This document shows, piece by piece, positions 8,521 to 13,220 of a stretch of 64,000 nucleotides of DNA. Made by a program: the position numbers and the translations under genes. The notes under the pieces were generated by a model that saw nothing but the letters and a program-made list of their open reading frames with translations, searched no databases and had not been told where the DNA came from. Source of the DNA: an uncultured Chloroflexia bacterium. GTDB lineage: Bacteria > Chloroflexota > Dehalococcoidia > UBA2979. The stretch is taken from contig CAVSIV010000006.1 in assembly GCA_963728205.1 (NCBI GenBank), forward strand, positions 1,504,001-1,568,000, read 5' to 3'. Numbering within the stretch: the first letter of the stretch is position 1; every line of letters starts with the position of its first letter.

Positions 8521-8993
8521 CCGCACCCGCGGGCGGACGCGTGGTGGCGCTCGTCGTGGCGACAGCGGCCGGCGCGCCGGCCGAGTCGCGCGAGGCCGTC
8601 GACCTGGTGGCCGGCGTCGGCGTCGCCGGCGACCGGTACGCCGAGTGCCGCGGCTACTGGAGCGACCCGCGCTGGCCGGACCAGGAGCTCACGCTCGTGG
8701 AGGCCGAGGTGGCCGACGCGCTCGGCATCGCGCCGGTGGCGCTGCGGCGCAACGTCGTCACGCGCGGCGTCGCGCTGGGCGCGCTCGTCGGCGCGCGCTT
8801 CCGGCTGGGCGATGCGCTGATCGAGGGCGTGCGCCCGTGCAATCCGTGCGCCTACATCGAGCAGCTCAACGCGCGACCGGGGCTGCTTGCGGCGCTCGCA
8901 GGGTGCGGCGGCCTGCGTGCGCGCATCGTGGAGGGCGGGCGCGTGACGGTGGGCGACCGTGTCGTGCGCGTGGGCGCGGCGTCGCCGGGCTAG
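8517..8993 (+). CDS. MOSC domain protein
   Basis: GVAGDRY, LTLVE.E, RRNVVTRG, CNPC, GG+RA.I..GG.V.VGD. Confidence 0.85.
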   Translation: MTAPAGGRVVALVVATAAGAPAESREAVDLVAGVGVAGDRYAECRGYWSDPRWPDQELTLVEAEVADALGIAPVALRRNVVTRGVALGALVGARFRLGDALIEGVRPCNPCAYIEQLNARPGLLAALAGCGGLRARIVEGGRVTVGDRVVRVGAASPG

Positions 8994-9997
8994 TCGCTCT
9001 CCGCGGCCGGCTTGCGGCGGGGCGTCTCGCGTGGCGACGGCGTCGCGCTCCCCGGCCGCTCGAACCGCGACGGCGGCTCGGCGCCCGGACCCGCTGTCTC
9101 CACCGGCGGCGTCACGGGGTGCAGCCGGCGCTCGCGGTCGGCCGCCGTCTCGCCGCTCGGCAGCCCGATCGTCTGCGGCTCGGCGTGCGCGTGGAGGATG
9201 GCGTTGAGCTCCGCGCCGACGAGCATGATGAACGACGTAATGTACAGCCACATCATCAGCACGATGATCGTGCCGGCCGCGCCGTAGGTCGCCTGGTACG
9301 CGCCGAAGCGCGACACGTACACCGCGAACCCCGCCGTCGCGAGCACCCACGTGACCACGAACAGCAGCGAACCGACGACGACCCGCCGCATCGGGATGCG
9401 CACGTTCGGCGCGACGCGGTAGACGAACAGCATCGCGACGAAGAGCACCAGGAGCGTGACCGGGAACCGCGCATAGGCGACCGCCAGCCCCCACGCTCCG
9501 CCGAGCCCGAGCGAGCGCGCGAGGTGGTCGCCGGCAAACTGCCCGACGACGAGCAGCGCGAACCCGGCCACGAACGCCGCCCCGGCGAGCAACGTGAGGC
9601 CGATGCCCAGCGCCTGCTTGCGCACGAAGGGCCGTCCTTCGTCGACGTCGTACGCGCGGTTCATCGCCTTGATCGTCGACTTCACCCCGCTCGACGACGC
9701 CCACAGCGCCGCGATCGCGCCGAACGAGAGCAGGCCCGGGTGCGCCGACCCCAGCACGCTCTCGAGCTGCGAACGCAGGAAGCCCGCGGCGCTCGGCGGG
9801 ATCGACGTCGCGACGCGGCTCATCACCTCCTGCGTCGGGTTCTGCACATGCAGCCAGCTCGCCGCGAACCCGCCGAGCGCGGCGAGGAAGATGAAGAAGG
9901 GAAACAGCGCGAAGAGGAAGCGGTACGCGAGTTCCGCGGCGAGCCCGGGCACGTCGTCGTCCTGGATTTCGTGGAGCAGCTCGCGAAGGATGTCCAT
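8990..9997 (-). CDS. YihY/BrkB family inner membrane protein
   Basis: AAELAYRFLFALFP, LWASSSG, NRAYDV.E.R, Y.ATYG...I.LM.WLY. Confidence 0.88.
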   Translation of the reverse strand: MDILRELLHEIQDDDVPGLAAELAYRFLFALFPFFIFLAALGGFAASWLHVQNPTQEVMSRVATSIPPSAAGFLRSQLESVLGSAHPGLLSFGAIAALWASSSGVKSTIKAMNRAYDVDEGRPFVRKQALGIGLTLLAGAAFVAGFALLVVGQFAGDHLARSLGLGGAWGLAVAYARFPVTLLVLFVAMLFVYRVAPNVRIPMRRVVVGSLLFVVTWVLATAGFAVYVSRFGAYQATYGAAGTIIVLMMWLYITSFIMLVGAELNAILHAHAEPQTIGLPSGETAADRERRLHPVTPPVETAGPGAEPPSRFERPGSATPSPRETPRRKPAAESD

Positions 9998-10137
9998 GGG
10001 ACCTCCTCCGACCACGTTACCCGATGCGTGCTCGCACTCCCGCGCAGAGACATGCGCCGGACGTTGCGAGTGCATTGCCGCCGGCTCCGGCCGCGCCGCC
10101 CGTCGATGCAGGGCAGCGCGGGCGGGCGGGCGGGGCC

Positions 10138-10953
10138 TCACACCTTGCGGTAGCGGTTCACCGCGATCGGCGCCGCGACCAGCGTGATCGCCGCGATCCA
10201 GAGCAGCGCCAGCCACACGGAGTCGCCGACGGGCGTGCCCAGCGAGAGCGCGCGTACGGCGTCCACCGTGTGCGACACCGGGTTCGCCTCCGCGATCGCG
10301 CGCAGCCAGGCGGGCATCGTCTGCACCGGGACGAACGCCGACGACACGAACACGAACGGGAAGACCCAGAAGAAGCCGGCGGTCTGCACCGTCTCGACGT
10401 CGCGCACGCTCACGCCGATGGCGGCGGAGATCCAGGAGAACGGCACGCCGAAGAGGACGGCCATCACGACGACGAAGAACGCGTCGACCGGCCCGCCGTG
10501 GAAGCGGAACCCGATCAGATACCCGACCGCGATCATCAGCAGCACGACGAACACGTTGCGGATCGTGTCCGCGATGATGCGACCGGACACCACCGCCGGG
10601 CGCGCCATCGGCAGCGAGCGGTAGCGGTCGATCATGCCGGCCGAGAGATCCTCGGCGAGCCCGAGGCCCGTGGCCATCGACCCGAACAGCACCGTCTGCA
10701 CGAAGATGCCCGGCAGCAGGAAGTCGGTGTAGTTGCCGGTCGCGCCGCTCACGGCGCCGCCGAAGACGTAGTTGAAGAGCACGACGAACATCACCGGCTG
10801 CACCGTCGAGAAGAACAGCAGCTCCGGCAGGCGCACGTAGCGGAGCAGGTTGCGTCGGGCCATCGTCAGCGAGTCGGTGACGACCCACCGCATGCGCGTC
10901 GCCCGCGAGGGGCGGATCGGCGCCGCCGACATCGTCCCGGTCAGCGCCGTCAT
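10138..10953 (-). CDS. ABC-2 type permease (DrrB-like)
   Basis: QPVMFVVLF.YVFGG, G.IDRYRSLPM, SSAFVP..TMP.WL..A..NP. Confidence 0.9.
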   Translation of the reverse strand: MTALTGTMSAAPIRPSRATRMRWVVTDSLTMARRNLLRYVRLPELLFFSTVQPVMFVVLFNYVFGGAVSGATGNYTDFLLPGIFVQTVLFGSMATGLGLAEDLSAGMIDRYRSLPMARPAVVSGRIIADTIRNVFVVLLMIAVGYLIGFRFHGGPVDAFFVVVMAVLFGVPFSWISAAIGVSVRDVETVQTAGFFWVFPFVFVSSAFVPVQTMPAWLRAIAEANPVSHTVDAVRALSLGTPVGDSVWLALLWIAAITLVAAPIAVNRYRKV

Positions 10954-12035
10954 CGCCCGCCCCTTCCGCGTCGCCGGCCGCGCGCAGCCGGCGCCTCGTT
11001 GTCCGCGTTGCCGTCGCCGGCGCTCGCGACGCCGGCGGCCCCGGGGTCCTCGGCGCGGTGACCCGTGAGCGCGAGGAACACGTCGTCGAGGGTCGGGTGG
11101 CGCAGGCCGATGTCGGTGAGCTCCACGCCGGCGGCGTCGAGCTCACGCACGGCCTGCGCAAGCACCATCGTGCCGCCGGCGACCGCGACCGACAGGCGGC
11201 GGTCGTCGCCGTTCACCTGAGGCTCGTCGTCGCCGAGGCGAGCGAGCACGTCGCGCGCGGCGGGCACCTGCTCCGGCTGGGCGACCTGCAGCGTGAGCAC
11301 GGCGCTCGCGCTGCGCGCCTTCAGCTCGTCGGACGTGCCCTCGGCGATCACGCGGCCGCGGTCGATCACGGTGATGCGGTCGGCAAGCTCGTCCGCCTCC
11401 TCGAGGTACTGCGTCGTGAGCAGCACGGTCGTGCCCTCGTCGACGAGCCCGCGGATCACCTCCCACATCTGGATACGGCTGCGCGGGTCGAGGCCGGAGG
11501 TGGGCTCGTCGAGGAACAGCACCGGCGGGTGCGCGATCAGGCTGGCCGCGAGGTCGAGCCGTCGCCGCATCCCGCCGGAGTAGTTGCGCGCCATGCGGTC
11601 GGCGGCATCGACGAGGTCGAACCGCTCGAGCAGCTCGCTCGCGCGGCGCCGCGACTCGTCGCGCGGCAGGTGGTAGAGGCGCGCGACCATCTCCAGGTTC
11701 TCGCGGCCGGTGAGGTACTCGTCGATCGCGGCGCTCTGGCCGGCGAGGCCGATCACCGAGCGCAGGGCCTCGGCGTCGCGCACGACGTCGAGCCCGGCGA
11801 CGGTGGCGCTCCCGCCATCGGGACGTAGCAGCGTGGTGAGGATGCGCACGAGCGTGGTCTTGCCGGCGCCGTTCGGGCCGAGCAGCCCGAGTACGCTCCC
11901 GTGCTCGACCTCCAGGTCGACCCCGGCGAGCGCCTCGACGTCGCCGAAATGCTTGCGCACGTCCGCGACGCGGATGGCGGGGCCCGCGGGGTCGCGGCCG
12001 CCGGCGCCACGGTTGATGTGTGCCGTCGATGTCAC
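10950..12035 (-). CDS. ABC exporter ATP-binding protein (DrrA-like)
   Basis: Walker A GPNGAGKTT, YSGGMRRRLDLA, LFLDEPT, C-terminal PTLDDVFLALTG; GTG start at 12035. Confidence 0.9.
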   Translation of the reverse strand: MTSTAHINRGAGGRDPAGPAIRVADVRKHFGDVEALAGVDLEVEHGSVLGLLGPNGAGKTTLVRILTTLLRPDGGSATVAGLDVVRDAEALRSVIGLAGQSAAIDEYLTGRENLEMVARLYHLPRDESRRRASELLERFDLVDAADRMARNYSGGMRRRLDLAASLIAHPPVLFLDEPTSGLDPRSRIQMWEVIRGLVDEGTTVLLTTQYLEEADELADRITVIDRGRVIAEGTSDELKARSASAVLTLQVAQPEQVPAARDVLARLGDDEPQVNGDDRRLSVAVAGGTMVLAQAVRELDAAGVELTDIGLRHPTLDDVFLALTGHRAEDPGAAGVASAGDGNADNEAPAARGRRRGRGGR

Positions 12036-12062
12036 TCGGTTCGCCTTTCTCGGTCGGAGCCG

Positions 12063-12123
12063 GGCGGGGCTGTGCAGCCGTGAGCCCGACCGATCCATGG
12101 TCGGGCTCACGGCCAGCCCCCGC
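12063..12123 (-). terminator. Long GC hairpin between the micro-ORFs and drrA-like gene (terminator/attenuator candidate)
   Basis: Perfect 15-bp stem GCCGTGAGCCCGACC/GGTCGGGCTCACGGC (12077-12113) extended by GGCGGGGCTG/CAGCCCCCGCC; no U-tract. Confidence 0.5.
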
Positions 12124-12136
12124 CACCGCGCCGGGA

Positions 12137-12292
12137 CTAGACGAGGCGCCGAGCGCCGCGCTCCGCCTCGTACAGCGGCAGGCACGCCGCCGCGAGGTCG
12201 CGGCACGACTCCGCGCGGGTCGGCTGGCCGCAGCGCACGAGGCGAGCGCGGTACAGGACGCGCTCGTGGAAGCGATTGATGCTGGGTTCCAT
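12137..12292 (-). CDS. Small protein, 51 aa (paralog B)
   Basis: RBS GGAGG 6 nt before ATG; MEPSINRFHERVLYRARLVRCGQPTRAESCRDL...; colinear with 12388-12537. Confidence 0.75.
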   Translation of the reverse strand: MEPSINRFHERVLYRARLVRCGQPTRAESCRDLAAACLPLYEAERGARRLV

Positions 12293-12387
12293 GGGGTTCC
12301 TCCCGGGTGATCGTCGCCGATCGCCCCTCACTGTCGCGTCGCCGATCCGGCGGGCGTCCGCCCGCGCGATCGGTCCCGCTCGAACGG

Positions 12388-12537
12388 CTAGGCCAGGCGC
12401 CCGCGAAAGCGCGACGCGCCCGCGATCTGCGCGTGTCGTGCCTCCACGTCACGGCGGCTCTCATCGCGCGATGGGAGGCCGGCGCGGTTCCGGCCGAGCT
12501 TCAGAACGCTGTTGTGGAAGCGATCGACGTCGAACAT
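12388..12537 (-). CDS. Small protein, 49 aa (paralog A; not in ORF track)
   Basis: RBS GGAG 6 nt before ATG; MFDVDRFHNSVLKLGRNRAGLPSRDESRRDVEARHAQIAGASRFRGRLA. Confidence 0.75.
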   Translation of the reverse strand: MFDVDRFHNSVLKLGRNRAGLPSRDESRRDVEARHAQIAGASRFRGRLA

Positions 12538-12580
12538 CTGGGGCTCCGCTCGCGCCTCTCGGTGCGCTGATGTTGTCCTG

Positions 12581-12617
12581 ACGACGTCACTATGACGTCA
12601 TAATGGCGTCTTGTCAA
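12581..12617 (-). promoter_or_regulatory. Sigma70-type promoter with three phased operator repeats
   Basis: Minus strand TTGACA (12617-12612)-17 nt-CATAGT (12594-12589); repeats ACGACGTCA, ATGACGTCA, ATGGCGTCT at 12581, 12592, 12603. Confidence 0.7.
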
Positions 12618-12668
12618 CTGCGGTGGAGGGGGCCGGTTCGCGCGGGCGGTTGGGGGCGCGCGCGGCGG

Positions 12669-12702
12669 CTCAGCCCGCTGACGCGTGGCCGTTCGCCGCG
12701 GG
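12669..12702 (-). repeat. Repeat family C, copy 2
   Basis: Reverse complement CCCGCGGCGAACGGCCACGCGTCAGCGGGCTGAG matches 3945-3978. Confidence 0.75.
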
Positions 12703-12782
12703 CGGCCCTCGCCGCGGGCGGTCGTCCGCCCAGCGCTCCCGTGGCACACTGGCCGGCGTTCCCGCAGCGAGAGGGGTGATGC

Positions 12783-13220
12783 ATGTCCATGACGCCGGAG
12801 CAGCTCGACGCGTTCCTCGCGCAACCGCTCGTGGCCGCCATCGCGACCGTCGACGACGACGGCCGCCCGCGCCAGGCGCCCGTCTGGTACCACTGGGCCG
12901 ACGGCGCGGCGTACGTCTTCACCGGTCGCGGCACCCTGAAGTGGCGCAACCTCGAGCGGCGCCCCGTCGCCTCGCTGTGCGTCGACCGCCGCGAGCCGCC
13001 CTACGCCGCGGCCATCCTCACCGGCCGCGTCGAGCCGAGCGATCGCCCGCTTTACGACCTCGTGCGCACGATGGCCGTCGCCTACTACGGTGAGCGCCGC
13101 GGCGTCGAGTTCGCCGAGTCCTACCGCGACAACCCCGGCGCCGTCGCCTTCCGCATCGTCCCCGACGAGATCGCGTCGTGGGACTACCGCGATCGCGACG
13201 GGGAGGCCGGGGAGGCGTGA
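12783..13220 (+). CDS. PPOX-class (pyridoxamine 5'-phosphate oxidase-like), probably F420-dependent
   Basis: IATVDDDGRP...PVWY, K.RNL.R.P..SLCVD, SWDY. Confidence 0.85.
   Translation: MSMTPEQLDAFLAQPLVAAIATVDDDGRPRQAPVWYHWADGAAYVFTGRGTLKWRNLERRPVASLCVDRREPPYAAAILTGRVEPSDRPLYDLVRTMAVAYYGERRGVEFAESYRDNPGAVAFRIVPDEIASWDYRDRDGEAGEA

Follow-up and report, generated by a model that had tools for sequence, protein, structure and literature searches.

Genes A and B are two tandem open reading frames (ORFs) encoding proteins of 49 and 51 amino acids, located between a promoter and the genes of an ABC-2 exporter in a 64,000-nucleotide stretch of DNA (the window; positions 1,504,001 to 1,568,000 of contig CAVSIV010000006.1, assembly GCA_963728205.1) from an uncultured member of the Dehalococcoidia. 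An original prediction, made from the sequence alone, described them as paralogous micro-proteins at the head of a DrrAB-type exporter operon and recognised no family. Here, we assign A and B to a family of small basic proteins, compare the genomic contexts of its members, and weigh the ways in which such proteins may act.

Tandem micro-genes A and B

The predicted coordinates and translations of A and B were recovered, and each gene has its own ribosome-binding site (RBS), GGAG for A and GGGAGGA for B. The two intervals also look coding, as had been claimed: GC content at codon positions 1/2/3 is 0.74/0.50/0.84 in A and 0.75/0.54/0.92 in B, the flanking genes have the same pattern (e.g. 0.80/0.50/0.94 in drrA), and none of the other five frames over the A and B intervals has a coding-type pattern. 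The longest ORF in the frame of B begins with a GTG at position 12331. A and B share 17 identities over 42 aligned positions (BLASTP, E 2e-7), and the 20 identical columns of a MAFFT alignment agree with the 'about 20' first counted by hand. We regard A and B as almost certainly genuine protein-coding genes of the family described below.

Both proteins are hydrophilic, with a highest 15-residue Kyte-Doolittle mean of 0.01 in A and 0.56 in B, and grand averages of hydropathy of -0.81 and -0.43, respectively. The three cysteines of B are not conserved in the family, and any cysteine at all is found in only six of 122 members.

The genome containing the window (G000; other genomes and loci carry G and L numbers) has four family copies: A, B, one on contig 1, and one – here termed canonical – at the rimO/DUF503 position described below. 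An initial search of this genome showed only A and B, and the other two copies came from later searches. Because the canonical copy lies elsewhere (G000:C6:1009024), A and B are paralogues and not its orthologues. In the protein tree they are sisters (SH-aLRT 91) adjoining the pair of homologues from genomes G014 and G033 (SH-aLRT 89). To judge from these sequence comparisons, A and B are tandem paralogues that evolve fast, in a family restricted to one lineage. The sequencing runs listed are three soil DNA runs, with word shares of 0.06-0.07, and none is of RNA.

A family of soluble basic micro-proteins

Six-frame profile searching of related genomes identified a 41-aa homologue in G014 and G033, and weaker six-frame hits led to a wider set of ORFs of about 43 codons with the same core, [RQ]-[YF]-[YH]-x2-[ILV][ILV]-x3-5-R-x3-6-P-[TS]-x2-E-[AS]-x-[RK]-D. 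The core R, P and E are invariant and the D nearly so, and all four are present in both A and B (R16, P22, E26 and D30, in A numbering). When A, B and their four closest relatives are left out, a hidden Markov model (HMM) of 41 other members still gives A 20.1 bits and B 15.1 bits, and none of 1000 shuffles of either sequence scores as high. A profile of A and B alone was of little use against 61 relatives, giving mostly R/A-rich noise in which only the G014 match was real, and a narrow-alignment search for related loci returned only two already known loci.

The 122 extracted members range from 33 to 53 aa (median 43) with a median isoelectric point (pI) of 10.3, and all are hydrophilic and basic. 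There is no membrane-like segment among them, as no 15-residue window exceeds a Kyte-Doolittle value of 1.12. It is the N-terminal and central core that is conserved; the last 10-15 residues are variable and form tails that are basic and not rich in Cys, Ser or Thr. Read by eye, the sequences suggest a helical hairpin as a possible fold. The ratio of non-synonymous to synonymous substitution (dN/dS) is 0.17-0.58 in eight orthologue pairs from other genera. The family is, as far as these comparisons reach, real and under selection, and it is predicted to consist of undescribed, soluble basic micro-proteins.

Wider searches are consistent with a family that has escaped description, as first supposed. 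Of 299 candidates from profile searching, 67 proteins match at E ≤ 0.01, and those with names are all 'hypothetical protein' from metagenome-assembled genomes of Dehalococcoidia or Chloroflexi. Among 1.84 billion proteins, 123 cluster representatives match at E ≤ 1e-3, nearly all of 38-75 aa; six long matches in multiple stretches look like low-complexity matches. None of 47 members tested, A and B included, matches a Pfam or NCBIfam model, those of small DNA-binding folds (RHH/CopG, HTH) among them, a PDB sequence profile search returned no relative (best E 0.93), and in the ESM Atlas the best scores of one homologue (P0002) were 0.79-0.80, to unnamed clusters and below the useful range. Our search of the literature on MmpL, TetR and upstream-ORF small proteins and on small proteins of Dehalococcoidia found nothing on the family; catalogues of small proteins (PMC11364881) may hold its sequences without a function. 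Since members are known only as hypothetical proteins with no Pfam or NCBIfam model, the family fills a gap in annotation.

The HMM and six-frame search that the original prediction proposed thus yields homologues, and no characterised family among them (Pfam, NCBIfam and PDB). Within the GTDB family of the source organism, matches at E ≤ 1e-4 are present in 58 of 99 genomes and 19 of 21 genera; the two genera without a match are represented by 19 and 4 genomes. A class-wide sample gave matches in 17 of 401 genomes including G000; leaving G000 aside, 13 of 25 genomes of its own family are positive and three matches come from other families. A phylum-wide sample of 400 other genomes gave two marginal matches. 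In the negative genus with 19 genomes, rimO abuts DUF503 in one genome (L196), with no room for the gene, and a third genome that was inspected has no DUF503 ORF nearby. In another genome of that genus (L197, G008:C1) about 750 nt separate rimO and DUF503, and by eye the frame translations of this stretch look lower in GC.

Genomic contexts of the family

We surveyed 123 family ORFs, recognised by the family HMM, in 116 fetched stretches that take in the flanks of all matches in the GTDB family of the source organism, labelling their neighbours by tblastn (E ≤ 1e-6) with reference proteins of Pfam-confirmed families; representatives of each class were themselves confirmed with Pfam. The largest class (57 ORFs, 52 loci) is canonical, with a same-strand rimO gene upstream and/or a convergent DUF503 gene downstream, and these copies have no co-directional gene downstream. 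The remaining 66 ORFs are followed by TetR and/or MMPL genes on the same strand (18 ORFs, 16 loci), by YibE/F (14 ORFs, 14 loci), by an ABC ATPase and ABC-2 permease (6 ORFs, 5 loci) or by a response regulator (4 ORFs, 4 loci), or have only a divergent PNPOx gene (2 ORFs, 2 loci) or another context (22 ORFs, 22 loci). Transporter operons are thus headed by 38 of the 66 non-canonical copies (18 TetR/MMPL, 14 YibE/F and 6 ABC-2). Tandem pairs are not confined to the window: one genus has them at the canonical locus, and a TetR-type locus has one too.

These contexts change what can be said of a module tied to exporters. The association with exporters holds at the level of the family; a specific link to DrrAB does not, as the commonest member stands alone, others head TetR-MMPL, YibE/F, response-regulator or ribbon-helix-helix (RHH) regulator operons, and the nearest relatives of A and B, in G014 and G033, have no ABC genes downstream. 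These relatives do share the promoter, the operator and the divergent PNPOx gene of the window. Mapped on the protein tree, context labels change 22 times, compared with a mean of 61 when shuffled (0 of 200 shuffles as low), on a tree of only 44 columns in which most deep forks are poorly supported. This clustering indicates that duplicates were inherited together with their operons. The stand-alone copy between rimO and DUF503 is the ancestral copy of the family.

Several members of the survey have individual features. A 136-aa ORF (L033:6714-7121 and L094:5297-5752, both plus strand) comes after the micro-ORF of G014 and of G033, with no Pfam match, 66% identity between the two genomes, and an acidic Asp/Phe run followed by an Arg/His/Ser-rich run; a terminator-like hairpin closes it. 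Within the 'other' group, two copies are in HxlR-containing operons and four lie ahead of, or overlap, an ORF that carries a HicB-type RHH domain (L083:4985-5617, L120:534-1181, L121:3487-4098 and L132:4116-4634). The RHH-linked members have 52-53 aa with an extended C-terminal tail and form a clade (SH-aLRT 97); nuo genes adjoin in L083 and L132, and an ORF of about 900 aa, ValRS by Pfam in L083, is present in L083 and L121. One further match, inside a 510-aa ORF (L182), is probably false; it is counted among the 22 'other' copies but excluded from both the tree and the statistics on protein properties.

A covarying stem-loop in the 5′ untranslated region

Canonical, YibE/F-type and response-regulator-type copies have in common a stem-loop of about 55 nt in the 5′ untranslated region (UTR), ending just before the Shine-Dalgarno sequence. 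An alignment of the copy in G000 (L052:1443-1497; G000:C6:1008965-1009019, outside the window) with 26 other loci has ten pairs predicted by RNAalifold, with compensatory changes in all ten. Paired cells amount to 84.3% compared with 64.6% in shuffles, and covariation is 0.551 compared with 0.225 in shuffles (0 of 500 as high) and at most 0.142 in slid registers. A covariance model (R1) gave five matches at E < 0.01 in six genomes, all directly 5′ of a family ORF; one is at a locus outside the training set and one at a frameshifted copy. The latter (L203; G014:C12:644232-644287 plus about 130 nt after it, minus strand) is a frameshifted micro-ORF behind an intact stem-loop, and was missed by the protein search. 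Rfam gave nothing at gathering score in 12 related loci.

In G000, R1 matches only the canonical copy (E 1e-4), and neither A nor B. The region upstream of A does not align with the stem-loop, and B has a different hairpin there, a small stem-loop in the same position but of different sequence. The 5′ UTR stem-loop is a candidate autoregulatory site. Ribosomal proteins have autoregulatory mRNA leaders, and the resemblance lies in a gene for a small basic protein with a covarying stem-loop beside its own Shine-Dalgarno sequence, found only 5′ of the family; any binding of RNA or the ribosome by the micro-protein is hypothetical. Unlike those proteins, it is not a core ribosomal component, as no copy was found in any of the 19 genomes of one genus of the same GTDB family, and rimO abuts DUF503 in one of them.

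Promoter, operator and pump operon

The near-consensus promoter predicted ahead of A, B and the ABC genes matches at 10 of 12 positions (TTGACA and CATAGT with a 17-nt spacer; Table 1). It is the sole promoter-like site in positions 11900-12900, where 0.0 are expected (50 shuffles), and its -35 and -10 are kept in G014 and G033. Overlapping the -10 is a twin operator composed of two TGACGTCA-type palindromes, TATGACGTCATA and GTGACGTCGT, with centres 11 bp apart. Location of the -10 box inside the two palindromes suggests that the window operon is a repressor-controlled, inducible efflux operon.

An operator core, GTCATAGTGACGTC, together with a TTGAC -35 box, is located 5′ of the micro-ORF in seven loci of four genera (the window, L033, L094, L081, L157, L160 and L181). 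Divergent partners at A/B-type loci are PNPOx-like in the window, L033 and L094, RraA-like in L080, L081, L157 and L166, and a Zn-dependent dehydrogenase (Zn-ADH) in L181. MMPL-type loci have ATGAACGTTCAT-like repeats upstream instead, as expected if they are controlled by their own TetR. A search of G000 allowing up to two mismatches found the window site, its own overlap and one other promoter. This second operator-like site (L189:4663-4679; G000:C1:645662-645678; two mismatches) is in the promoter of a 480-aa gene without a micro-ORF, and an HxlR gene (L189:7242-7586), one of three in this genome, is 2.6 kb away. The linkage of micro-ORF and operator posed for checking at the outset is therefore real at seven loci and not strict, since the second site precedes a gene that lacks a micro-ORF. 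The second site may mark a small regulon also including the window operon.

The micro-protein itself was considered as the operator-binding factor, a proposal weakened by the presence of an operator-like site near HxlR and before a gene without a micro-ORF; the operator more likely belongs to a separate repressor. HxlR genes are present in five related micro-ORF loci, three of which have the exact operator core; one genus has ABC-type operons ending with HxlR-type and TetR-type regulators, and HxlR genes are found also in L166 and L181. We infer that the repressor of the TGACGTCA sites is of the HxlR type and binds there. As far as PMC3351151 describes the redox or electrophile regulons of MarR/DUF24 (HxlR-type) regulators, the likeness extends to HxlR genes near related operators and to divergent flavin/quinone-type oxidoreductases (PNPOx-like, and Zn-ADH in L181); unlike such regulons, the 64-kb window gave no TetR or HxlR gene with tblastn queries from related loci (E ≤ 1e-3), a search in which a diverse TetR could be missed.

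Each micro-gene was predicted to have a trailing hairpin; both hairpins exist, and only the one after B is stronger than expected by chance. The hairpin between B and drrA (-67.9 kcal/mol) exceeds chance, with z -4.7 and none of 200 shuffles as good; the 100-nt spacer between A and B (-48.6 kcal/mol) does not, with z -1.3 and 18 of 200 shuffles as good. A REP-like repeat was considered for the B-drrA hairpin and rejected, as the 4.1-Mb assembly contains no other copy. There are no terminator-like sites with a U-tract in 11900-12900, and Rfam gave nothing at the window locus apart from one chance match (E 0.37).

The pump is an ABC-2 ATPase and permease pair, as predicted, and is best described as DrrAB-like ABC-2 instead of certified DrrAB because the models specific to DrrB and to the DrrA C-terminus score below their cut-offs: PF13732 (DrrA1-3_C) gives 22.9 bits on the ATPase (cut-off 27.4), and the NCBIfam DrrB models TIGR00025 and TIGR01247 give 95.5 and 90.2 bits (curated cut-offs 146.9 and 223). 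The genes A-B-drrA-drrB(-brkB) probably form one operator-controlled pump operon with A and B as its first cistrons, of which brkB may be the last gene. The PNPOx gene has a 53%-identical counterpart, likewise divergent, at the corresponding place in G014 and G033. The window neighbours are PNPOx-like, MBL-fold, ABC-2 pump, BrkB, class IV aminotransferase, bPH and rhodanese proteins.

Table 1. Coordinates of genes and sequence features at the A/B locus of the window
Feature	Position	Strand	Details
YihY/BrkB-family membrane protein (brkB)	8990..10102	-	PF03631 E 2e-65; 35 nt past drrB
ABC-2 permease (DrrB-like; drrB)	10138..10953	-	PF01061 (ABC2_membrane) E 2e-32; start overlaps drrA stop by 4 nt
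ABC ATPase (DrrA-like; drrA)	10950..12035	-	GTG start at 12035; PF00005 E 8e-31
Long GC hairpin between B and drrA	12055..12133	-	Starts ~4 nt past B stop; no U-tract
Micro-protein B	12137-12292	-	ATG at 12292; 51 aa; pI 9.6; 3 Cys
RBS of B	12304-12299	-	GGGAGG(A), 5-6 nt 5′ of ATG
Small stem-loop	12299..12326	-	Stem-loop 12326-12305 abutting the RBS of B
GC-rich hairpin 3′ of A	12342..12373	-	No U-tract
Micro-protein A	12388-12537	-	ATG start; 49 aa; pI 11.6; no hydrophobic segment
RBS of A	12547-12544	-	GGAG, 6 nt 5′ of ATG
Twin palindromic operator	12581..12602	-	TATGACGTCATA (12602-12591) and GTGACGTCGT (12590-12581); overlaps -10
Sigma-70-type promoter	12589..12617	-	TTGACA (12617-12612), 17-nt spacer, CATAGT (12594-12589); 10/12 matches
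PNPOx-like flavoprotein gene	12783..13220	+	PF01243 E 4e-17; divergent, shares promoter/operator region

Possible roles of the micro-proteins

The explanation that we favour, at a confidence just short of even, is that A and B are family paralogues heading an operator-controlled pump operon and act in trans as cytoplasmic micro-proteins. It begins with a stand-alone ancestral gene between rimO and DUF503 that has its own covarying 5′ UTR stem-loop beside the Shine-Dalgarno sequence, and whose duplicates have repeatedly become the first cistron of inducible operons (ABC-2, TetR-MMPL, YibE/F, response regulator and RHH). The peptide, made together with the pump, would be a small cytoplasmic regulator or adaptor that acts in trans, and would probably bind nucleic acid or a regulator; the stem-loop suggests feedback by a trans factor. 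Whether taken as a regulator or as an adaptor, a trans-acting A/B peptide is a possibility that we place somewhat below probable. We prefer action in trans to a cis-acting leader because the commonest member of the family has nothing downstream to regulate, because conservation is that of a folded core and not of a stalling tail, and because the family-specific 5′ UTR element suggests trans-factor feedback. We do not think that the peptide is exported or is solely a cis leader.

There is an example of a 'leader' acting in trans, the 14-aa peTrpL. This peptide of Sinorhizobium meliloti acts on a multidrug-efflux operon that includes a TetR-type regulator (PMC7298713). As outlined in that source, it resembles A and B as a very small peptide linked to an efflux operon with a TetR-type regulator, the link being one of post-transcriptional control; it differs in deriving from the trp attenuator, in having no sequence similarity to them, and in not being encoded in the efflux operon itself.

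A number of observations weigh against the trans-acting explanation. The contexts rest on neighbouring genes called by a heuristic based on GC content at the third codon position (GC3) and tblastn at E ≤ 1e-6, and the context of 22 of the 66 non-canonical copies falls in none of the classes. As the downstream proteins are unrelated across contexts, a common binding partner among them is unlikely. At the A/B locus, the terminal branches of the protein tree are long (1.06 for A and 0.94 for B), and the dN/dS check proposed in the original prediction gives about 1.1 for A compared with B, and 0.86 for the G014 and G033 relatives with only 12 differences; on these grounds purifying selection on the A/B copies is not demonstrated. 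The A-B-pump cassette has been seen in one genome only, as three genomes of the same genus have the canonical copy only and lack a close DrrA orthologue (best DrrA match 50% identity). Moreover, in the TetR-type junctions displayed, the stop codon of the micro-ORF and the start of TetR are 2-8 nt apart, overlapping in one case (TAGTG), and hairpins separate the micro-ORF from the gene that follows it, both in the window and in YibE/F- and response-regulator-type loci. The first-cistron position, the TetR coupling and the hairpins together leave real weight with a cis-leader model.

In that model, translation of A and B would control read-through of the hairpin and translation of drrAB, without any role in trans, in the manner of BmrB or of erm/cat leaders. 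The BmrB ORF has about 50 codons and acts in cis by ribosome-mediated attenuation; to our knowledge BmrB belongs to no stand-alone protein family. It is the leader peptide of the bmrCD ABC multidrug transporter of Bacillus subtilis and provides a precedent (PMC4191407). As in the BmrB system, a short ORF of about 50 codons is located just 5′ of an ABC exporter, on the same transcript, with an RNA hairpin between them; the A/B family departs from that system in being conserved, with 57 stand-alone copies, in its tandem duplicates, in having no U-tract terminator and in having a DNA operator at the promoter. The position of 44 of 66 non-canonical copies as first cistron and the strong, genome-unique hairpin directly after the B stop also accord with a leader. 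However, the 57 canonical copies converge on DUF503 and have no gene to regulate, it is the core that is conserved and the C-terminal 10-15 residues that vary, and tandem duplication is unusual for a leader. The hairpins lack U-tracts, and of the four other ABC-type loci, where -3 to 109 nt separate the micro-ORF from the ATPase start or match, the two junctions displayed have no large hairpin. An alternative terminator/antiterminator structure is not demonstrated, and there was no systematic search for alternative pairing. We consider a purely cis-acting leader unlikely, if deserving of serious attention.

A less probable explanation – and quite an unlikely one – is that the family is real while A and B are functionless, as relaxed and decaying duplicates carried in the 5′ region of the pump operon. 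The dN/dS of A and B, their long branches, the odd composition of B, the lack of the family 5′ UTR element at A, the restriction of the cassette to one genome and the frameshifted member elsewhere would all fit decay. Against this, neither frame is broken, both genes have an RBS, GC3 is 0.84 in A and 0.92 in B, every invariant residue of the family is kept in both, and both score far above shuffles with the independent HMM. The dN/dS values are weak evidence here: with synonymous sites constrained and saturated (73% GC, GC3 about 0.9), those for A/B and for G014/G033 neither prove nor exclude selection.

The micro-proteins could instead be transporter accessory subunits that dock on the pump from the cytoplasmic side and modulate it, in the manner of a soluble AcrZ. 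Co-encoding of 38 of 66 non-canonical copies with membrane transporters, and co-variation of the micro-protein sequence with context class on the tree, are in keeping with this, and AcrZ – the 49-aa transmembrane-helix partner that binds the AcrB pump of E. coli within the membrane – is a precedent for a small pump partner (PMC7267776). On the description given there, AcrZ is likewise a micro-protein of about 50 aa tied to an efflux pump, unlike A, B and all 122 members in that these are hydrophilic and basic and accompany three unrelated transporter types. No member has a membrane segment, ABC-2, MMPL and YibE/F proteins have no common domain, and other copies precede only regulators (response regulator, RHH or TetR) or nothing at all, so that an accessory subunit is improbable.

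Export of the peptides by the adjacent pump, as products like ribosomally synthesised and post-translationally modified peptides (RiPPs) with a conserved 'leader' at the N-terminus and a variable 'core' at the C-terminus, is very improbable. The N-terminus and centre are indeed conserved and the tail variable, the copies are in tandem, and exporters are adjacent. But Pfam finds no RiPP-modifying enzyme or peptidase among the window neighbours and no C39 domain on the ATPase – in line with the original view that a RiPP is not supported – and the neighbours are instead of PNPOx-like, MBL-fold and BrkB type. Nor are the tails, which are basic, rich in Cys, Ser or Thr; the canonical copy is beside no exporter, and the coupling to TetR and response regulators would be left unexplained.

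Last, the notion that A and B arose by chance in GC-rich DNA that codes for nothing – long spurious ORFs are common at 73% GC – is effectively refuted by their frame-specific codon-position GC pattern, their match to a 123-cluster protein family, and their homologues found in other genera by six-frame search.

Small proteins known to be co-encoded with pumps are either cis leaders, such as BmrB, or membrane partners, such as AcrZ, and the present family fits neither: it has a housekeeping-like stand-alone copy together with many duplicates that head three unrelated transporter types. The micro-protein might then be a portable trans-acting control module, a 'header gene' for efflux operons copied into unrelated inducible operons, e.g. 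as an RNA- or regulator-binding switch that would be translationally coupled to the operon's own repressor; we find this broader proposal attractive and doubtful. The family offers three testable handles, namely the peptide, the covarying 5′ UTR stem-loop, and the twin TGACGTCA operator found across genera. If the peptide acts in trans, it would represent reusable wiring of pump expression in a large uncultured soil lineage, the Dehalococcoidia.

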